From an uncultured virus (IMG/VR IMGVR_UViG_3300030376_004046) (taxonomy: Duplodnaviria > Heunggongvirae > Uroviricota > Caudoviricetes), in the IMG/VR virus record IMGVR_UViG_3300030376_004046, positions 1 to 64,000 of that record: a DNA stretch of 64,000 nucleotides. One strand, written 5' to 3'. Below, piece by piece: positions 7,701 to 63,600 of the stretch. The notes under the pieces were generated by a model that had not been told where the DNA came from, did not search any database, and saw only the letters and a list, made by a program, of their open reading frames with translations. The position numbers and the translations under genes are program-made. The stretch's first letter is position 1, and the number at the start of each line of letters is the position of its first letter.

Positions 7701-7714
7701 GTGACTATATATAT

Positions 7715-8436: not shown

Positions 8437-9219
8437 ATGGCATTTAAAATGAAAGGAAGTCCTCATAAAAATGGAGGCATACAAGGATCTCGCGTGCATA
8501 AAAAATCTATAGCTAGAGCCATGCAACCTTTAATAGGTGAAAGTACTAGAACAAAAGCTGACTCTTCTTTAGTAAATCAAGCATATAGATTAGGTCAATC
8601 GTTTAAGCCTGCAAAAGTCAATTTCAAATTAGATATACCAGAGATAAAACTACCTAAAGGTGATAAAGAAGAAGAAATTAAAGGATGTACGTACGAAAAT
8701 GCTACAAATTACAATCCTGACGCAACAGTAGATGATGGAAGTTGCGAGTATCCTGATCGTACAGAAATAGTTACTAATAATGATAATGGTGATGGTGATG
8801 GTGATGGTGGTGATGGTGGTGACGGTAACGGTGATGGTGGCCCTGCCACTGTAAATAACTATATGAGTCCATCAGATGGGAACGCGTCTAACTCATTTAA
8901 TACTGTTTATGGTGATGATCCACTGACTGCAGAGATACGAGATACATCAGAACTACAAGCTGGTCAAGTTGAAGACTTAATGGATAGTTTAAGATTTAGT
9001 AGTGGCCAAGGAGTAGAAATACTGACAGATACACAAAGAGCAAACATTAAAAAAGATTTTGAAAACATGACTTTTTTAGAAAGAAATAAATTATTAAAAG
9101 ATTTACAAGGCTCTGTAATGCAAAAAAGAGACGATAGAATATATAAAAACGCTAGAGCAGGTAGCGTTTTAAGAAAAAAAATGAGAAAAAGCGGTTATAC
9201 ACCACCAGAATTTAGATAA
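8437..9219 (+). CDS. MAFKMK-tagged protein with one GCT..A.NYNP.A..DDGSC repeat and a Gly-Asp tract
   Basis: Translated motifs; GGTGAT repeats at about 8788-8840. Confidence 0.7.
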   Translation: MAFKMKGSPHKNGGIQGSRVHKKSIARAMQPLIGESTRTKADSSLVNQAYRLGQSFKPAKVNFKLDIPEIKLPKGDKEEEIKGCTYENATNYNPDATVDDGSCEYPDRTEIVTNNDNGDGDGDGGDGGDGNGDGGPATVNNYMSPSDGNASNSFNTVYGDDPLTAEIRDTSELQAGQVEDLMDSLRFSSGQGVEILTDTQRANIKKDFENMTFLERNKLLKDLQGSVMQKRDDRIYKNARAGSVLRKKMRKSGYTPPEFR

Positions 9220-13427: not shown

Positions 13428-13862
13428 ATGGCATTTAAACTAGGATCAGAAAAAGGTAATTACGCTGTTAACGGTGAAATAAAAACAAAAATGCGTTTTG
13501 GCCAGCAAGCTGGTGGAGACGCGTCTGTACCTGGTACTCCAGTAATTAGAGTACCATTAGATGAAGGTGTTATGGGTGAAGCCAACATGGATGGTAGTAT
13601 ATTTATTAGTGATCAAATAACACCTGGTAGTCAAGAAGAATCACAAGTAATAAACCACGAAATGAGACACGCTACAGACATGAAAACAGGTAAACTAGCG
13701 TATACAGACGATTATGTTATGTATAACGGAGATAAATTTATGAGAAAAAATATTAATGGTGTTGATGCTATATTGGTAGATGGTAAATGGAAAGAAGCTG
13801 GAGACACTGGTTTTCCTTGGGAAAACGATGCTAATAATGGTCACGATGAAGGATATATTTAA
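13428..13862 (+). CDS. Zincin-like metallopeptidase
   Basis: GEANMDGSIFI...VINHEMRH (HEXXH)...PWENDA; starts with MAFKL. Confidence 0.75.
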   Translation: MAFKLGSEKGNYAVNGEIKTKMRFGQQAGGDASVPGTPVIRVPLDEGVMGEANMDGSIFISDQITPGSQEESQVINHEMRHATDMKTGKLAYTDDYVMYNGDKFMRKNINGVDAILVDGKWKEAGDTGFPWENDANNGHDEGYI

Positions 13863-14064
13863 AGATAATAATGATTATAATGAAAAATCTGTTATAGGAT
13901 TTTTAGCATTTGCAGTAATGTGTGTGATTATGTTAGTAGACGTAATAACGGGTTATTTTGGTAAAGACCTAGTAATTAATGAATTTATATACGATTCATT
14001 TGTATTTGTAGTGATTGGTTGCTTCGGTATAAGTGGATTAGAAAAATTTGCAAAAAAGAAATAA
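13846..14064 (+). CDS. Two-TM membrane protein, holin-like
   Basis: Probable start at 13846 (MKDIFKD); two hydrophobic helices and a basic C-terminus. Confidence 0.6.
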   Translation: MKDIFKDNNDYNEKSVIGFLAFAVMCVIMLVDVITGYFGKDLVINEFIYDSFVFVVIGCFGISGLEKFAKKK

Positions 14065-14065
14065 T

Positions 14066-14452
14066 ATGTTAGATAAATTATTTGGAGGTGGCGCTGCTGA
14101 CCTCGTTAAAAGTGTAGGTGGTGTTATAGATGGTTTACATACATCTGACGAAGAAAAACTCGCTGCAGAGTTAAAAGTAAAAGAGTTAGTAGCACAATAC
14201 GAAACTCAAATGGAAAAAGAAATAACTTCTAGATGGCAAGCAGACATGAAGTCAGATTCATGGTTATCTAAAAACATCAGACCATTAGTTTTAGCATTTT
14301 TAGTAATATCAACTGTACTATTAATATTTATAGATGCAGGTGCTATTAACTTTGTGGTAGAACAAAAATGGACTGACTTATTACAATTAGTATTAATAAC
14401 CGTGATCGGTGCTTATTTTGGTGGTCGATCATTTGAAAAAGTAAAAAAATAA
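14066..14452 (+). CDS. Holin (GTA 3TM-holin-like)
   Basis: RWQADMKSDSWLSKNIRPLVL...GAYFGGRSFEK; probable start at 14066. Confidence 0.75.
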   Translation: MLDKLFGGGAADLVKSVGGVIDGLHTSDEEKLAAELKVKELVAQYETQMEKEITSRWQADMKSDSWLSKNIRPLVLAFLVISTVLLIFIDAGAINFVVEQKWTDLLQLVLITVIGAYFGGRSFEKVKK

Positions 14453-48797: not shown

Positions 48798-48826
48798 GTA
48801 AAGATTTAAAAAAATAAGTGATTATA
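48798..48826 (+). promoter_or_regulatory. Class II phage promoter GTAAA-N15-GTGATTATA
   Basis: Matches the motif; ends 5 nt before ATG 48832. Confidence 0.65.
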
Positions 48827-48831
48827 TAAAA

Positions 48832-49911
48832 ATGGTGAAAAAACTAATAATACTACTGCTATTACTACCTAGTTTAGTAGTTTGTCAAACTTTTAAAAAA
48901 GAAGACCTTGAAGACTTGCTAAAGTTTTCTACTTTTTATGCCGCAGTTAACGGTGGTACATCATTATCTGATGTTGATGTATTTTCTGTAGATAATGGTT
49001 TATCTACACAAACTATTTCAACTCCTTATGATTATAATTTTACCATAGGACTCCGTAAAATAGCTAGGTTTGGATATGAGAATAAGGCAAATACTTTTTA
49101 CGATGGTACGGAATCTAATTACAGTGACGCGGCAACTGTTGGTAAAGTTAGAGGGGTTGAGTATTTATTTGAAATAGATTACAAAAGACAAGAAGGAGTA
49201 GATTATATGGATCAACATCATTTTATTAGATTTAGTTCTGACGATGGTTGTCCTGATGAATTATGTGTAAACTTTTTTGCTTTAAAACTAGAGTATCTTG
49301 AAGATGGTTTTGCAGATGTAAAATATTTTGAAGCTTCAGAACGTTATAGACATAGAAAAAATGCTAATTTATCTTGGAACATAGGGCTAACGCATCGCTT
49401 AGCTGAACCATACGGTTATAACGCTTTAGATGAGTGGATGTTAAGCAATGGCAATATACATTATACTTATTTAGCGTTACAAGAAGGATATACGGTCGAT
49501 GTGTATAGCAGTGAGTACTATAATCCAGCTGGCGAATTAGTGGCTACAAGCGCTGAAGTTTGGGAGGCAGTTGTTATACCTGAAGTGTTAGCTGGTTACA
49601 CTCAAAAGAAAAGAAACGAATTAAAAAAAACAATACAACACTCTTTAGTTTTAGGATTTGATTATTACAAATATTCTAAATCAACATGGCTACACGCTTG
49701 GGGTAGTATAATGCCTTATCACTATGATGATGGTAGCGAGTTTAGTTATCACAATTATGTTGATGGTCAATGGTATGATTACTCAGGAGGGTTAATATAT
49801 GGTATAAAAGTAAACAAACAACTAGGGTATTTTGTAGAAGGAAAGTATAATAAATATTGGAACAGAGAGTGGTACGATTTTAAACTAGGAGTTAACTACA
49901 CAATTTTTTAA
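48832..49911 (+). CDS. Predicted outer-membrane beta-barrel protein
   Basis: Signal peptide ending VVC|Q, aromatic alternating strands, and C-terminal YDFKLGVNYTIF (terminal Phe beta-signal). Confidence 0.7.
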   Translation: MVKKLIILLLLLPSLVVCQTFKKEDLEDLLKFSTFYAAVNGGTSLSDVDVFSVDNGLSTQTISTPYDYNFTIGLRKIARFGYENKANTFYDGTESNYSDAATVGKVRGVEYLFEIDYKRQEGVDYMDQHHFIRFSSDDGCPDELCVNFFALKLEYLEDGFADVKYFEASERYRHRKNANLSWNIGLTHRLAEPYGYNALDEWMLSNGNIHYTYLALQEGYTVDVYSSEYYNPAGELVATSAEVWEAVVIPEVLAGYTQKKRNELKKTIQHSLVLGFDYYKYSKSTWLHAWGSIMPYHYDDGSEFSYHNYVDGQWYDYSGGLIYGIKVNKQLGYFVEGKYNKYWNREWYDFKLGVNYTIF

Positions 49912-49930
49912 AAATTAAAAAACAATAATT

Positions 49931-50128
49931 ATGGCATTTAAAATGAAATTAAAATCTCCACTTTTTCAAAAAGTTGGGAAGTTGAAAGTACAGCAATTAA
50001 AAAAAGTTGGAAGGTTGACAAAAAAGAACTACGAAGGATCTTTTGAACAAGCTTTTGCTAATGCTAGAAAAAGTGGTGCTAAAGAGTTTATTTATAAGGG
50101 TAAAAAATACAATACTAAAATAAAGTAA
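49931..50128 (+). CDS. Small basic MAFKMK-tagged protein
   Basis: MAFKMKLKSPLFQK...SFEQAFANARKSGAKEFIYKGKKYNT. Confidence 0.7.
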   Translation: MAFKMKLKSPLFQKVGKLKVQQLKKVGRLTKKNYEGSFEQAFANARKSGAKEFIYKGKKYNTKIK

Positions 50129-50133
50129 ACATA

Positions 50134-50424
50134 ATGGCAAAAGAATTAAATGAAGATACAGCGTTTAAGCTAAGTATAAAAACAATGATGGGGCTAGCGT
50201 TTGCAATAGCAACTTTAGCTGGTATGTGGTTTACATTACAAGCTGAAATAGCAGAAGCTAAAGAATTACCAGTTATACCACCACCACCAGATCCAGAAGT
50301 TACGCGTATGGAGTTTGACATGAAAGATCAAATGATACGTAATACTATTATGACAACACAGAAAGACGTTGAAGAAATAAAACAAACTTTAGAAAAAATA
50401 GAAGACAAACTTTATGATAGATAA
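50134..50424 (+). CDS. Single-TM protein with a Pro-rich linker and a coiled coil
   Basis: TM GLAFAIATLAGMWF, then PPPPDP and heptads. Confidence 0.7.
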   Translation: MAKELNEDTAFKLSIKTMMGLAFAIATLAGMWFTLQAEIAEAKELPVIPPPPDPEVTRMEFDMKDQMIRNTIMTTQKDVEEIKQTLEKIEDKLYDR

Positions 50425-50773
50425 TATTAACTGGCAAACAAGAGTTATGTACATGTTAATAATTATTATCATGTTATCTTGTAGTGTTTGTTTTAGTCAA
50501 ATAAAAGTAGTGCAGTTTAATGCTGGTTGGAATAAGGCTAACGATGTGCCTTGGGTAATGAGTTTAAAAGACTGTAAGACTATAGGTTATACAGATGTTG
50601 GTAAAGATACTAAAGCACAAGCAAAATACAAAATAGCCTCTGTACCTACTATAATAATATTTAAAGACGGAGAAGAAGTTGCAAGATTTCAAGCTGATCT
50701 TAGTTTTACAATGGTAGCAACAAAAGAAGAAGTACAAGAAGAAATAGATAATATAATAATGAGCGATTTTTAA
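50414..50773 (+). CDS. Exported thioredoxin-fold protein lacking CXXC
   Basis: Signal ending CFS|Q; VVQFNAGWN; YKIASVPTIIIFKDGEEVARF. Confidence 0.7.
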   Translation: MIDNINWQTRVMYMLIIIIMLSCSVCFSQIKVVQFNAGWNKANDVPWVMSLKDCKTIGYTDVGKDTKAQAKYKIASVPTIIIFKDGEEVARFQADLSFTMVATKEEVQEEIDNIIMSDF

Positions 50774-50775
50774 TT

Positions 50776-51147
50776 ATGCCAGGAACACACAAACAAAACA
50801 GTATGTTTAAAAAAACTAAAGGATACATTCAAGATGGTAATCCTTTTCCCGTGACTAGTTGTGGTAGACGTAGAAATACAGGGTCACCATTACACAGCAA
50901 CGAACCGCGCAAAACTACAAAAGGTAAAAATAGGAACTTTAGAACAGTTGAGGAGGGCGCTGGGATGACCGCTAAAGGAGTTAAAGAATATAAACGTAAA
51001 AACCCTGGAAGTAAGCTTAAAACAGCTGTAACAGGAAAAGTTAAACCAGGTAGTAAAGACGCAAAAAGAAGAAAATCTTTTTGTGCTAGATCAAAAGGTT
51101 GGACTGGCGAAAGAGGTAAAGCGGCAAGAAGAAGATGGAAATGTTAA
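50776..51147 (+). CDS. Small basic phage protein
   Basis: GMTAKGV..Y...NPGSKLKTAVT...RRKSFCARS...ARRRWKC, a motif common in marine phages. Confidence 0.7.
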   Translation: MPGTHKQNSMFKKTKGYIQDGNPFPVTSCGRRRNTGSPLHSNEPRKTTKGKNRNFRTVEEGAGMTAKGVKEYKRKNPGSKLKTAVTGKVKPGSKDAKRRKSFCARSKGWTGERGKAARRRWKC

Positions 51148-51668
51148 AAGATTTTGACATATCAAGTTTTAAAAAACAAAAACCACCTAGTGATAATAGT
51201 TTTGATACAGACCAAGAAATTAAAGCTCTTAAAAAAATACCTTTAAGAAAAGAGTTTGTTAAAAAGTATGATGACATAGAGGCGGCGTTTGAAAAAACAG
51301 CTAAAGAAAATAATATAAAAGATTACGATAAAAAGATCGCTGCTAAACTTATAAAAGAGTCTGCACCTGTAATATTAAAACTAAAGAAATATCACAACAG
51401 ACCAAGGCCATATGAATTAGATAAATCTTTAAGCGCTGTTAAAATGAAATCAATGAACACGCCTTCATATCCATCTGGTCACTCTGCGCAGGGTATGCTT
51501 ATAGCATCGGCATTGAAAGACAAATACGGTAAAGGAAAAGCCTTTATGCAAACGGCTAAAAACATATCTGATAGTAGAAACACAGCGCACGCTCATTATA
51601 AAAGCGATAGTAAAAACGGAACAGAATTAGGAAAACAAATGTATAAACACGTTAAAAACAAAATTTAA
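51135..51668 (+). CDS. PAP2/haloperoxidase-superfamily phosphatase
   Basis: All three motifs: KKYHNRPRP, YPSGH and SRNTAHAHYKSD. Confidence 0.85.
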   Translation: MEMLKDFDISSFKKQKPPSDNSFDTDQEIKALKKIPLRKEFVKKYDDIEAAFEKTAKENNIKDYDKKIAAKLIKESAPVILKLKKYHNRPRPYELDKSLSAVKMKSMNTPSYPSGHSAQGMLIASALKDKYGKGKAFMQTAKNISDSRNTAHAHYKSDSKNGTELGKQMYKHVKNKI

Positions 51669-60000: not shown

Positions 60001-61503
60001 AATGATACTTCAAATGCTATTTACGGTCCTATTGTACCGCCTATACAAGGTAATGTAACTTTAGTTAACCCAACTAATTTTTACTATGAATTATCGCCTG
60101 TAAACTTAAATACACCATCTACATCTAGTTACACTAACTATCCACAATGGGGTTCTCAAGACATTATAAATGGTATAGATATAAATGTTGCTTTTGATCC
60201 TAATTATGCTGGTTTATGGGCCTTTGACTCTAGTTTATATGATTATTTTGGTACCGGTCCAAACTTACTTGATTATCCATCTGGCCCACTAAATGACAGT
60301 TGGGAAATGGAACAAGTTGGTCAAGGAAAAATTACACATGATGCAATGATTGCTGTTAACAATGGTAATCCTGTACTTACTTTACCTACAAACCCCGCAA
60401 ATCCACCAGGTGATTATTACAATGCTTTTGAGGCGTGTGATAATTATACTTTAAATAATTTTGATGATTGGTTTTTACCAAACGTAAGAGAAATGGAGTT
60501 TGCTAGAAGTTACACGCCACCAGGAACATTACATAATTCACTTGGCGCTTATACAGCTTCTATTACTTGGAATACAGGTTCTAGTGAAACTAGTTATTGG
60601 ACATCTAATACCGCTAAAGGAAATCCAAACTCTTTTTATGCCCCATCAAACTATACTAGTGGAAGTCAGTTTCCTATGACAGCAGCCCAAACCACTTTTC
60701 ATGAAAACTCCGGTGGTACAGCTTATATACCACAAAACTATCAATTTGTAAACTATGTAAGTGGAGGATTTGCGCTTAATTACGGTTATGTAGTTGCATC
60801 TGATCCTTTAGTTGAAGCAAATCCAATAGATAATCCCATAGGTCCTGGTTGGAGAACTCCTAGTAGTAGAATTAATAGACATAATGTTAGAGCAATGCGT
60901 AGATTTACCTGTCCACCACCCGCTGTAGTGGGTGCAGAAAAATATACTTGGTCTTTATGTGCTTATAAAGATACTAGCGGGGTAATTAATTTTTTCCCTG
61001 GTCCTTGGGTTGTTGGTTCTGTTTATGATCAAGGCCCAGTAGTTATGGATAATATAGGTTCTAATGCGTTTGCAGATGATTGGGTAGCTGATGTTCAAAC
61101 TACTTTAGGTGTATCTGTAATGCCAGGACAGGTTGTTGGGGTTAATTTTTCACCACCTTTACCAGGTGGTATGACAGATTTATATATTAAATTTGAAGGT
61201 TTAAGTTTACCTTGGGATGAAAAATTAGAAATAACAGGTTTATTAGCAACACCAGTTACCACTGTTACATACACATTACACCAAGACTGTGATACTGCTA
61301 TCTATGGAGTATCTATAGTTGATCCTGATGATACAAGCACCGCTCGTTTACAAGCGCCTGATGTTAAATTTAAAAAGAGAGTAACTACAACGGAAATTAT
61401 AAATGAAGAGCAAAAAAAGGAAAATAGAGATATAATAGAAAAAAACAGAGAAAACAAAAATATAATAAGAAAAAATGGACAAAATGATAAGCGGACATAT
61501 TAG
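57079..61503 (+). CDS. Large adhesin/receptor-binding-like protein with two DUF1566 (Lcl C-terminal)-like domains
   Basis: Two copies of Y.(I/V)GD...AGGI...A...C..Y..N....WFLP...E...YWTS...VRA.R.F. Confidence 0.7.
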   Translation: MAIDCLDCKIVISNTSGVLGGPITFTDPFTGLSNTVSYPYFEPGEVAKYDNLFWIKCPYFPTPNNPFAGGEQIKRFVITESDCTLGHADTGPTSVIWTPNNNPLGITSTGKGMCAKNATTLIIGSVSLNLGTDWLCEVDVSGSTAVVTPLFQAGGFINGDIVYIPSTDTIVATVDTGSGLTFAIHYDMNGNVLGQSSLNLIGTNPDSVFSQDDDVYICTNNNIFQFDLSSYTLNPSILTNVGAGVTDTGSHPECYIKDFCYEIGDVTSTFNGGAGGIVFATPFTGLNQTPFYYEVAFDDLATGTTPINTVFTDDSFPFSQYNSPDGQVQCGEEIFAGSLGTPIYKPWDLLGAEFGSYNNGLTIPTSTDFGTGDVNTFNILNHPATPTFPTHDIAAYLCSNYIFNGTKGWFLPSLMEFHLLATNLGPGTPFENDLNLDTNFSRLQNTYWTSSEVNGKILNPLYPDTSLKYIGGPDDFKSDPFAWGYTAVNPTPPYSASTFTPGPHVFARCNTLSVRAIRKFECVEPEPTPEIPFNWVDDVQYRQNKIQQEFSMSTGINLAGSAASNWSRTMLTGPSKLAPSLDPSTWVTSEYEFDAVIGLEEFRWAVSATDVAGNKYDVGDFSDFNNPDGYKFKFYTADKVFLGEWHYQNCEVKQPGMQHNIFDNPVYSFANAPWFDDTVFPGRISLIFTNPTHISGDYPIVSYGFYDSVWGQGESRGRKVDNSCATCCNDAIHVLADPSVPLQGYTRSHFPYLPDPKFHYAYDNEYEEGTFQGTTGSYAFIHFSCKMADQKTIPLPDMNTGTNTTTNAKNVICLKEPFNDIKQTPGQNVLAEKTSGHIGTAYPLTRDYGDDCQGNWIGLQPSSFNTNIYSNYALSGSNPPVTLGLIGAPTNPNGSYGVGTLSTLRSINKPFFPKHFLWTWHAVFDPNQFTNNLTPIFDNFLDGLDSGCSHGCSYDVGDTGPAGGIICAVPYMNVNDTSNAIYGPIVPPIQGNVTLVNPTNFYYELSPVNLNTPSTSSYTNYPQWGSQDIINGIDINVAFDPNYAGLWAFDSSLYDYFGTGPNLLDYPSGPLNDSWEMEQVGQGKITHDAMIAVNNGNPVLTLPTNPANPPGDYYNAFEACDNYTLNNFDDWFLPNVREMEFARSYTPPGTLHNSLGAYTASITWNTGSSETSYWTSNTAKGNPNSFYAPSNYTSGSQFPMTAAQTTFHENSGGTAYIPQNYQFVNYVSGGFALNYGYVVASDPLVEANPIDNPIGPGWRTPSSRINRHNVRAMRRFTCPPPAVVGAEKYTWSLCAYKDTSGVINFFPGPWVVGSVYDQGPVVMDNIGSNAFADDWVADVQTTLGVSVMPGQVVGVNFSPPLPGGMTDLYIKFEGLSLPWDEKLEITGLLATPVTTVTYTLHQDCDTAIYGVSIVDPDDTSTARLQAPDVKFKKRVTTTEIINEEQKKENRDIIEKNRENKNIIRKNGQNDKRTY

Positions 61504-61939
61504 TTATAAAGAAAGCGTGTATAGCACAACTGCTTTACGTAGAGGTATAGATAACAAACCTAATGAAGAGCAATTAGCAAACATGAAATTAATTGGTGAA
61601 AAAATATTTGAACCACTTAGAGAATATGTTGGTGGACCTATAAAAATAAATAGCTTTTTTAGAGGTAAAGAGTTAAACAAGGCTATTGGTGGTAGTAATA
61701 GATCACAACATTGCAAAGGCCAAGCTATGGATATTGATGACACGTTTGGTTATAAAACAAATGCACAAATGTATGATTTTATAAAACATAATTTAGATTT
61801 TGATCAAATGATATGGGAGTTTGGTAATGATGATAATCCTAACTGGGTACATATCAGTTATGTTTCACCTAATAAAAATAGACAGGTTTGTTTAAAAGCA
61901 TATAAACAAAACGGTAGAACTAAATACATGGTTATATAA
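61475..61939 (+). CDS. Peptidase M15 endolysin
   Basis: INSFFR...NKAIGGS..SQH..GQAMD...WVHISY. Confidence 0.85.
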   Translation: MDKMISGHISYKESVYSTTALRRGIDNKPNEEQLANMKLIGEKIFEPLREYVGGPIKINSFFRGKELNKAIGGSNRSQHCKGQAMDIDDTFGYKTNAQMYDFIKHNLDFDQMIWEFGNDDNPNWVHISYVSPNKNRQVCLKAYKQNGRTKYMVI

Positions 61940-63600
61940 TGGACAATAGATTAATGACACTAGCAGGTTTATCACCTTTAAAACAAGATGATAACAAAGA
62001 AGAAGTAAGAACTTATGAACTAATGGATTTTGATGATCTTATTATTAGACAACAGTTTAATGAATCAAGATTTAAATCAGATGCAGTTAGTCCTGCCGGT
62101 GCTATTAGCATTGCACAAATAACTAAACAAACTTTTAATGAGGGTATAAAAAATGGTTACGTTCCAAAAGATACTAAATTTGAAGATTTAGCAAAAGATG
62201 ATGCTTTAGCAGAAAAATTCCAAAGAGCATACATAAAAGATTTAATGACTAGATCTTGGAATAAAGGTTCTGATGTGGTTAAACAAGCAAAAGCTTTAGC
62301 TGCATATAACATGGGTCCTACTAGACTTGTAAATATACTTAATGAAATGAAAGCAGATGGTATAGATATATATAGTGATGATATGTTATGGGTGGCAAAA
62401 TTACCAGAGTATCACAAGCACTTAAAAGGAACTAAAAAAGGAGAAAGTATAATTGAATCAATGAATTATGTTGAAAATATAATGCTAGGTGGAGATGAGA
62501 TATACGAAAACAATTACAAAAGATTATATGATGAAAGATTTCCAGAAGAAGAAGTAATAGAAGAAGAAAAAGAACTTAGTTTTTTTGAAAAAATGATGGA
62601 AGCTATGAAAGATGTTAAAGCCAAACAACAAAAAACAGAGGGTTCTTTAATGAAACTAAAAGATCCTTATACTGGTGAAAAAATGTTTGAGTCACCTATA
62701 AAAAATATTACTGTAAATCCTATATCAGGTTTATCACCTTTCAAACAAGCAGAAGAAGAAAGTTTTTTAGATAAATTACCTTCATATACTGATATGTTTG
62801 ATGTAAAAGCTTTAATAAGAAAACAACTAGCTAAAAATTTATATCCAGTTGGATACACAGGAAGATATGGAAGTGGTGTTGGATTTGGTGAAAGATTTTT
62901 TAATGCTTTGTTTGGTAGTGAAGATGAAAAAGATTATGCTAATAGTAATACATCTTATAATGATATTGATAGTTATTATAAACGTACAGGATTAGATCCA
63001 TCTAGAGATCTTGATTTTATTGCAGAAAAAGAACGTATGGATTTATTACAAATGGTAATGGGTCAAGAACAAAAATATAATACAATACAACCTTCTAGAT
63101 ATAAACCAACTGTAGGCCATGAAAAAGGTGATAAATATTATCGATCAAAAGCAACAGAAATATCTATAAGAAAAAGTTTAGAAAGTAATTATGTAGAAAG
63201 TGAATATGATACACTTGGTATGACTAATATATATAGAGAATTACAAAAACAAAAACCTAATAAAAAAGGTATTAAAAGCATATCAAAACGATTAGAGTTT
63301 TTAGGCGAATATAATAGTTTAGGAAATACTACATTTAGTTTAGGTGAAGATGAAAAAGGAAAGTATATTTCTTATTATGACGTATGGGATTTAGATCCTA
63401 CACTTGAAAAAACAGATAGTGGAATTTTTGTTAATTATCTTGGTTCTACCGATAATAATGCATTAGATAAAATAATATCATCAATTATTGATGGTGCAAG
63501 TATTTCAAATATATTAGATTTAACACCTCCAAAAATTTATGGAAGAGTTTATTTGAAAGAAGTTTTATCTGAAGATCAGATAAAAGAATTAACTAAATAA
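61939..63600 (+). CDS. Lytic transglycosylase (SLT-like) domain fused to an unknown C-terminal domain
   Basis: NESRFKSDAVSPAGAISIAQI and ALAAYNMGP. Confidence 0.75.
   Translation: MDNRLMTLAGLSPLKQDDNKEEVRTYELMDFDDLIIRQQFNESRFKSDAVSPAGAISIAQITKQTFNEGIKNGYVPKDTKFEDLAKDDALAEKFQRAYIKDLMTRSWNKGSDVVKQAKALAAYNMGPTRLVNILNEMKADGIDIYSDDMLWVAKLPEYHKHLKGTKKGESIIESMNYVENIMLGGDEIYENNYKRLYDERFPEEEVIEEEKELSFFEKMMEAMKDVKAKQQKTEGSLMKLKDPYTGEKMFESPIKNITVNPISGLSPFKQAEEESFLDKLPSYTDMFDVKALIRKQLAKNLYPVGYTGRYGSGVGFGERFFNALFGSEDEKDYANSNTSYNDIDSYYKRTGLDPSRDLDFIAEKERMDLLQMVMGQEQKYNTIQPSRYKPTVGHEKGDKYYRSKATEISIRKSLESNYVESEYDTLGMTNIYRELQKQKPNKKGIKSISKRLEFLGEYNSLGNTTFSLGEDEKGKYISYYDVWDLDPTLEKTDSGIFVNYLGSTDNNALDKIISSIIDGASISNILDLTPPKIYGRVYLKEVLSEDQIKELTK

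Follow-up and report, generated by a model that had tools for sequence, protein, structure and literature searches.

An uncultured ocean podophage of flavobacteria-like hosts encodes a three-gene envelope module that is real, widespread and undescribed, and that combines a predicted outer-membrane beta-barrel (ORF 48832), a predicted single-pass inner-membrane protein (ORF 50134) and an exported thioredoxin fold devoid of active-site cysteines (ORF 50414). A shared envelope function of the three products is well supported by gene order. As to the nature of that function, the trio is tentatively read here as a three-part, barrel-anchored spanin substitute acting as a late-expressed lysis module, a reading to which we give somewhat less than an even chance. 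The window, i.e., the whole stretch of DNA that was analyzed, comprises the first 64,000 bases of a virus record of 68,711 bases that is rated complete by estimate, and the three open reading frames that an earlier sequence-only reading had grouped together were all found in it (Table 1).

Table 1. Position and properties of the module genes and of related features in the window
Feature	Coordinates	Strand	Remarks
Small exported protein, 148 aa	7715..8161	+	Short T9SS-like tail; same upstream motif (at 7701)
Small two-helix membrane protein	13780..14064	+	In clades B and C, family members frequently lie within or next to the trio; no convincing family match
3TM holin	14048..14452	+	Match to HMM of a neighbor family that matches phrog_3427 holin; trio lies 34 kb downstream
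Conserved upstream motif, probable phage late promoter	48798..48829	+	Core GTGATTATA at 48818-48826
Outer-membrane beta-barrel (predicted), 359 aa	48832..49911	+	12 strands; Gln19 follows the signal peptide; ends in Phe
Small basic ORF, 65 aa	49931-50128	+	Variable insert between barrel and membrane gene; outside the conserved module
Single-pass inner-membrane protein (predicted), 96 aa	50134..50424	+	One hydrophobic stretch, proline linker, helical periplasmic part
Exported thioredoxin fold, 119 aa	50414..50773	+	11-nt overlap with ORF 50134; W-N-x-x-N, cis-proline P78
Secreted cysteine-repeat protein, 717 aa	52177..54330	+	T9SS-like C-terminal sorting signal; usual clade-A companion, not core
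Peptidase M15 endolysin	61475..61939	+	PF08291 E 9e-15, phrog_894 endolysin E 6e-29; 10.7 kb downstream of the trio

The terminase, portal and structural genes of the virus resemble those of flavobacterial podophages. Terminase matches in GenBank comprise 87 records, of which 68 are Flavobacterium phages (elemoviruses, 45.6% identity) and most of the remainder are phages of Cellulophaga, Tenacibaculum, and Maribacter. One tail protein contains a crAss muzzle domain, and the genome also encodes GroEL; GroEL-bearing marine phages of this kind are treated as putative Flavobacteriaceae phages in the accessible text of Nishimura et al. (PMC5332604). The trio is located on the late strand, directly downstream of a 3,225-aa ORF.

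Barrel-seeded scans recovered the module from four clades (A to D), each monophyletic with an SH-aLRT of 100 in a quick, unrooted tree of 48 rows, and the barrels of clades B and C are about 30-37% identical to that of the window, which belongs to clade A. The complete trio was present at 75/80 loci in clade A (the best 80 of 471 close loci), 72/80 in clade B (the best 80 of 96) and 74/80 in clade C (the best 80 of 222), in total 221/240 among the best barrel-seeded loci, and the five clade-A loci lacking it stop within about 1.1 kb of the barrel. Clade D comprises eight loci: all five with flanking sequence hold the trio, two stop inside the barrel, and one is a spurious match. When the thioredoxin fold served as the seed instead (the best 80 of 162 loci, 78 of them new and many on clade-A contigs), the barrel was detected at 71/78 loci and at one more on an adjoining stretch of the same contig, the other six being cut off 0.3-4 kb downstream. 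Dereplication at 88% identity of the 269 loci with one intact copy per gene left 131 loci, the window included. The membrane and thioredoxin genes lie at most 40 nt apart in 130/131 of these, and the barrel gene lies within 4 kb of this pair in 126/131, at a varying position. Trio contigs range from about 20 kb to 165 kb, the small clade-B ones carrying siphovirus-like gene sets. The conservation of gene neighborhood that the sequence-only reading had put forward as a check therefore came out in its favor, as the trio co-occurs across marine phage relatives, also after rearrangement. Seven longer matches were considered as natural fusions; the six that were read contain an internal signal peptide or unrelated domains and were set aside as gene-calling or assembly artefacts.

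No match to the barrel or the thioredoxin fold was obtained by tblastn among 50,697 GenBank phage records, and the barrel was not found in 400 sampled Bacteroidota genomes or in 281 further genomes of one order, the latter set lacking a positive control. Three GTDB matches are taken to be phage contigs in MAGs because they sit among phage genes. However, the barrel family is not strictly phage-only: at one locus (L335), a 27%-identical barrel, which forms a long branch among the other barrels in the unrooted tree, lies beside DUF3089 and flavodoxin genes on a cellular-looking contig from which the partner genes are absent. Searches with the distant barrels P0128, P0152, and P0232 yielded no loci. 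For the membrane protein, two marginal matches turned up.

These arrangements bear on whether the three proteins act together at all. A tight pair of membrane protein and thioredoxin fold might simply travel with a separate barrel through a shared stage of action, without any three-part complex; the barrel shifts relative to the pair by up to 7 kb and sometimes to the opposite strand, L199-L202, L205, and L206 have a duplicated pair around a single barrel, and L335 demonstrates that a lone barrel exists. This is nevertheless the least probable of the alternatives weighed here, given that the trio is kept in four deep clades and across such a range of genome sizes, and that the thioredoxin-seeded loci almost always hold the barrel or end early. 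A prediction of the complex (the barrel, two periplasmic membrane-protein parts, and the thioredoxin fold) scored 0.21 against a mark of 0.32, which speaks neither for nor against it, and mutual-information covariation over the 269 paired rows (effective number 39) gave no inter-protein pair above intra-protein noise, with a shuffle control that breaks relatedness. Of the trans-envelope complex initially proposed, the shared envelope function is borne out by gene order, and a physical complex is a hypothesis.

For the barrel, two AlphaFold2 models (59 and 127 sequences; pLDDT 76.5 and 78.1; pTM 0.72 and 0.73) both contain 12 long amphipathic strands with alternating hydrophobic and polar faces, and these models agree with fold searches, which return outer-membrane barrels, in predicting for ORF 48832 a beta-barrel, one that ends in Phe as noted initially. 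The predicted protein combines the hallmarks of outer-membrane barrels, namely a signal peptide, an even number of amphipathic strands, and a terminal aromatic residue. Strand count and fold matches suggest that the barrel is closed and indicate its probable orientation: by strand counting, a helical insertion (residues 192-266) would face outward and a long, conserved loop with low model confidence (77-107) would lie on the periplasmic side. Among the parts examined, conservation is highest at residues 73-111, where 41% of columns are at least 90% conserved versus 18% overall. The top Foldseek match is NanC (E 4.8e-5), and VIA-align scores are led by Tsx (Z 10.7, rmsd 4.9, 196 aligned), NanC (10.5), TamA (10.3), and EstA (10.2) for the first model and by OmpG (11.5), CymA (11.2), KdgM (10.5), and OmpLA (10.3) for the second. 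Since these matches are tied within about 1 Z unit, at 5-12% identity, none stands out and the barrel is assigned to no named family. It has no sequence family in Pfam, PHROG, NCBIfam or PDB and no profile match to the Tsx, NanC/KdgM, OmpLA, autotransporter or T9SS PorV/PorP families; a true relative is found in a single unnamed viral model (E 6e-25, 21% identity), and 3,714 barrel relatives were counted at E<=0.001.

The phage barrel resembles other 12-stranded barrels (Tsx, NanC/KdgM, OmpLA, autotransporter beta-domains, and FapF) in its predicted strand number, amphipathic strands, terminal Phe, and charged lumen, but is only 5-12% identical to them at an rmsd of about 5 A and differs by its large helical insertion on the outer side and its long loop, which is conserved. 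The invariant Ser nucleophile of OmpLA is absent, and a lipase function was rejected, with no invariant Ser or Cys in the 131-locus set. The Ca-binding DxDxDG-type motif present in some distant barrels occurs at 0/131 paired loci for the pattern and range used. The cyanophage outer-membrane barrel (PF24653) and other phage outer-membrane proteins are likewise marine-phage beta-barrels, neighbors in features with weak fold matches; they give no sequence match and are mostly much smaller, and we know of no comparable partners for them.

The barrel lumen is lined by invariant Arg, Lys, and Glu residues and a Trp-His ladder, with R75, E110, K152, R173, R189, and H288 as invariant inward-facing charges. 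These charges and the conserved loop would exceed the needs of an anchor and suit a gated channel or a sensor. The barrel might accordingly be a phage solute channel, possibly plugged, that feeds the infected cell through nucleoside or acidic-sugar uptake, the two small proteins serving as its gate or helping its assembly; the nearest folds include Tsx, NanC, KdgM, OmpG, and CymA, and in clade C the trio frequently adjoins ribonucleotide reductase genes. However, non-channels (TamA, autotransporters, and OmpLA) match equally well at 5-11% identity, an inner-membrane partner is superfluous for simple porins, and the module occupies the late strand and, in small phages, minimal lysis cassettes, all of which render a channel improbable.

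The predicted inner-membrane protein contains a sole hydrophobic stretch (residues 17-35, mean hydropathy 1.6) followed by a PPPPDP proline linker at residues 49-54, so that both features noted initially are present, and K12 and K16 suggest an N-in topology. Its predicted 61-residue periplasmic part is helical and carries invariant E60, K64, and R69, while cysteine was found in the membrane protein at 0/131 dereplicated loci. The coiled coil ascribed to this protein is read from its heptad pattern and from matches that are weak and generic, rather than from a predictor. Rz-like PHROG matches of the membrane protein (E about 0.015; 3 and 2 of 111 members) were taken as coiled-coil noise. The description of the module as three genes only had overlooked ORF 49931, which lies between barrel and membrane gene and has no family match in Pfam/PHROG-type searches; its slot is empty in most relatives, the membrane gene directly following the barrel at 40/63 clade-A loci.

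ORF 50414 was recognized correctly as an exported thioredoxin fold without active-site cysteines. Its family profile matches 193 solved sequences at E<=0.001, with thioredoxins and PDI domains on top, and cis-proline P78 is invariant (131/131), which together identify the thioredoxin fold; 4,404 thioredoxin-like relatives were counted. Alignment to solved thioredoxins places W-N-K-A-N over W-C-G-P-C, both cysteines being replaced by Asn, and thereby corrects the earlier proposal that FNAGWN replaces WCxxC. The active-site motif is W/F-NxxN at 130/131 dereplicated loci, and neither active-site position holds a Cys at any of the 131, in contrast to the CxxC/CxxS of redox-active thioredoxins; thiol chemistry is therefore impossible at that site. 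A single Cys54 elsewhere in the fold occurs in 55/64 clade-A and 30/40 clade-B loci, and at other positions in clade C. Compared with the thioredoxin family (PF00085, TIGR01068), ORF 50414 shares the fold, the F-x-A-x-W lead-in, and the cis-proline, but has NxxN for CxxC, a shortened following helix, and export, and it scores under the curated cut-offs. The substrate-binding elements of the fold thus appear to be under selection, compatible with a binding role.

All four exported proteins of the window carry Gln right after the apparent signal peptide (4/4), as had been observed before, with cleavage sites read by pattern rather than by a predictor. This Gln is conserved in relatives, namely in 127/131 barrels and 131/131 thioredoxin-like proteins (Gln29), against a proteome Gln content of 3.8%, and fits the Q-rule of Bacteroidetes as set out in the accessible text of two papers (PMC5837995, PMC10653852). 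The promoter-like motif reported upstream of the barrel is likewise real and conserved: an AAGTGA-type motif lies at most 60 nt from the barrel start at 38/63 clade-A, 1/40 clade-B, and 0/26 clade-C dereplicated loci. The window contains eight copies of GTGAYWATA versus 3.65 +/- 1.94 expected, a number reached in 2/100 shuffles, and three of them are located 14-32 nt ahead of the late-strand genes 7715, 36306, and 48832. A sigma-70 scan gave no site upstream of the barrel, and the motif is probably a phage late promoter.

The neighbors of the module were counted at those dereplicated loci that have over 2 kb of sequence to either side (43/63 in clade A, 25/40 in B, and 18/27 in C), which are related rather than independent. 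T9SS-type cargo lies within 2 kb of the trio in 36/43 loci of clade A, 25/25 of B, 0/18 of C, and 0/5 of D, and when clades A-C are pooled it is a commoner neighbor (61/86) than an endolysin (39/86). Orthologs of ORF 52177 carry the canonical TIGR04183/PF18962 domain in tail position (L038: 38.6 bits, cut-off 23), whereas the TIGR04183 model gave no match to the window's own ORF 52177 tail, a variant that also ends secreted Bacteroidota proteins, e.g., GH16. The HMM of the clade-B cargo tail recognizes the tail of the 7715 product (E 1e-7). Phage-encoded T9SS cargo is already known from Cryophage (Bellas et al. 2020, PMC7468147), where, as with ORF 52177 and its orthologs, variable phage proteins carry a host sorting tail; this comparison covers the companion gene only, the accessible text making no mention of a barrel, membrane or thioredoxin partner. 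The trio could then serve as an anchor or folding aid for phage cargo or a surface lipoprotein displayed on the infected cell, as the cargo directly follows the barrel in 35/40 clade-B loci, a slot that in clade C is taken by a lipoprotein in 7/27 loci. However, the trio is intact without cargo in all 18 clade-C and five clade-D loci, which argues against a required cargo for the anchoring role suggested initially, and the cargoes of clades A and B belong to different sequence clusters; we regard this role as about as improbable as that of a channel. The only companions common to all clades are the trio genes themselves, since clades C and D lack the cargo and in clade A the lysis genes lie apart.

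An endolysin candidate occurs within 2 kb of the trio in 6/43 loci of clade A, 25/25 of B, 8/18 of C, and 5/5 of D, and a recognized holin in 3/43, 13/25, and 1/18 loci of A, B, and C, respectively. Because the holin and endolysin of the window are far from the trio, the lysis link derives from relatives and not from the window genome. In the small phages of clade D, the gene order is barrel, membrane protein, thioredoxin fold, endolysin, and 3TM holin, without cargo, and either M15 or DUF5675 fills the endolysin slot at the five flanked loci, two of which are near-identical. Overall, the slot is occupied by four unrelated families: M15 peptidase, a phrog_33083-type protein, a PG-binding amidase, and DUF5675. 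We presume the DUF5675 proteins to be endolysins, for which a literature search gave no confirmation; without them, the nearest-endolysin counts become 4/43 in A, 14/25 in B, and 7/18 in C.

The earlier claim that a lipoprotein spanin is missing was upheld: scanning every frame of the genome gave no credible lipoprotein, and neither did the 14-17 kb around the cassette at 12 small-phage loci, where the positive control worked. A scanned elemovirus stretch likewise gave no lipoprotein. Lipobox-like sequences do occur in some barrel leaders and rare micro-ORFs. Lipoproteins lie near the module at 23/80 clade-C, 6/80 clade-B, and 12/161 clade-A loci, mostly with different shapes, and a spanin role is possible for some of them. 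In a single case, the endolysin of a relative lacking the trio is followed by a different membrane protein with a lipobox-like sequence, a protein present in no trio locus.

The trio resembles the two-component spanins (lambda Rz/Rz1, T4 PseT.3/PseT.2) in several respects: it has a type II helical inner-membrane subunit, judging from sequence, its membrane and thioredoxin genes abut or overlap as spanin partner genes do, and it holds a lysis-cassette position in clades B and D. Unlike an o-spanin, however, the linked partner is a soluble thioredoxin fold with Gln29 and no lipobox, a third gene for an integral barrel is added, and there is no sequence homology. The trio is therefore not a two-component spanin proper, since the defining lipoprotein is absent. 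A periplasmic cysteine for a homotypic disulfide, as in spanins, is missing from the membrane protein, and the thioredoxin fold holds its single Cys54 at most loci of clades A and B. None of the three proteins has the layout of a unimolecular spanin (N-terminal lipobox and C-terminal transmembrane helix). In the accessible text of Kongari et al. (2018, PMC6139136), 91 genomes of spanin-less phages are listed, an outer-membrane protein is proposed as a possible o-spanin with none identified, combined spanin periplasmic lengths span 62-300 residues, a range that includes the 61 + 91 residues of the trio, and the T4 spanins are encoded at a distance from holin and endolysin. In the accessible text of Bartlau et al. 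(PMC8776804), no spanin is reported for the related podophages Gundel and Calle. A Crassvirales review (PMC10136315) attributes lysis of crAss-like phages to spanins and lysins. Searches of titles and abstracts in the openly readable literature gave no description of the trio; its composition matches no described system in the searches made, and gene context is what suggests its function.

The trio is read as a spanin substitute on account of the minimal cassettes of clade D and small clade-B phages, the anatomy reminiscent of an i-spanin, and the lack of a lipoprotein. Greatest weight is placed on these cassettes, which contain few other genes and in which one endolysin replaces another at the same site. 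The localization, topology, binding, and adaptor role of the parts and any effect on the outer membrane are inferred. Like an i-spanin, the membrane protein would be anchored in the inner membrane and extend its helices into the periplasm, and the barrel in the outer membrane would take the place of the o-spanin lipid anchor. The Cys-free thioredoxin fold would act as a periplasmic adaptor joining the two, perhaps by binding peptide at its cis-proline groove. Once holin and endolysin have cleared the peptidoglycan, the bridge could collapse so that the two membranes are joined or torn.

The non-canonical spanin role raised by the sequence-only reading is thus favored by gene context in clades B and D, in addition to the overlapping genes, whereas the link is weak in the window's own clade, where endolysin and holin are rarely adjacent, cargo usually is, and the trio has its own upstream motif. 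The lone barrel of L335 and the missing o-spanin lipoprotein and membrane-protein cysteine also count against it, and envelope genes may merely pool at the end of a late operon. An alternative scenario is that the module acts in superinfection exclusion or lysis timing, with the barrel sensing or blocking a second infection, the thioredoxin fold relaying the signal, and the membrane protein restraining the holin or DNA entry, as modeled on T4 lysis inhibition, which involves holin T and antiholin RI. Such a function would account for the lysis-gene link without membrane fusion, for the tie between a soluble exported partner and a single-pass protein, and for a barrel with a large outer insertion, invariant lumen residues, and an upstream motif of the trio's own. 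However, it would leave these phages with no identified outer-membrane step, and PHROG gives no sequence likeness to antiholins or exclusion proteins; we consider it unlikely, though less so than the channel or cargo roles.

Collectively, for phages that lack a lipoprotein spanin and must still get through the outer membrane, the trio provides a concrete, small, and very common candidate in which an outer-membrane protein would act as o-spanin. It is possible, though we lean against it, that a spanin substitute of this kind represents a third class of outer-membrane lysis machine, in which a barrel replaces the o-spanin lipoprotein and is coupled to an inner-membrane coiled coil by a thioredoxin fold converted from an enzyme to an adaptor. 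If so, this class would serve podo- and siphoviruses of marine Bacteroidota with genome sizes between about 20 and 165 kb and would explain part of the spanin-less phages. If the trio instead gates, excludes or displays, it would still be a phage-built trans-envelope device, two of whose three parts are without a named family, carried by phages that infect bacteria recycling algal biomass.

In the window, the late-strand ORFs at 8437, 13428, 49931, 51890, and 52048 share a short, basic MAFK-type N-terminus, and basic ORFs also often occupy the slot 3' of the thioredoxin gene (31 of the 63 group-A loci, the window's own barrel clade). The late region of the window additionally encodes a PAP2-like phosphatase (51135-51668) and an SLT transglycosylase protein (61939-63600). 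In 5 of the 40 clade-B loci, including L089, L090, L119, and L126, the barrel gene is preceded by TAnnTTTG, the Bacteroidetes housekeeping promoter element.

The window barrel (48832-49911) carries a short two-cysteine insertion in a turn at residues 136-148, and 60 of 131 relatives share this insertion. One contig (L022, in its 12 kb region) harbors a second barrel gene 3' of the cargo gene, 71% identical to the window barrel. A distant barrel homolog (L335:2992-4194, and L336) lacks the partner genes and lies on a cellular-looking contig encoding flavodoxin and DUF3089. In L199-L202, L205, and L206, the membrane protein and thioredoxin pair is duplicated, flanking a single barrel on either side, and this arrangement is followed by an M15 peptidase and a lipoprotein.

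The clade-B cargo (L116:9024-9806 and 75 other clade-B loci) is cysteine-rich and contains an LDL-receptor-like motif; its T9SS-like tail is very short and resembles that of window ORF 7715. In clade C, the trio is adjoined by a further exported protein, small and barrel-like, or by an acidic-tipped lipoprotein (L182:5925-6353; L166:9206-9778).

In a few loci, the region 3' of the thioredoxin gene encodes micro-lipoproteins that are 35-40 aa long and contain a K-x-CC motif.

Micro-lipoproteins with a K-x-CC motif in relative loci
Locus	Positions within locus
L046	4468-4575
L261	10351-10458
L005	7679-7795

Resembling these, leaders that combine a lipobox with KKCC are fused to 21 of 131 barrels, as well as to one thioredoxin (L081) and one cargo protein (L049). 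The lipobox/KKCC element is possibly a mobile leader or lipid anchor.
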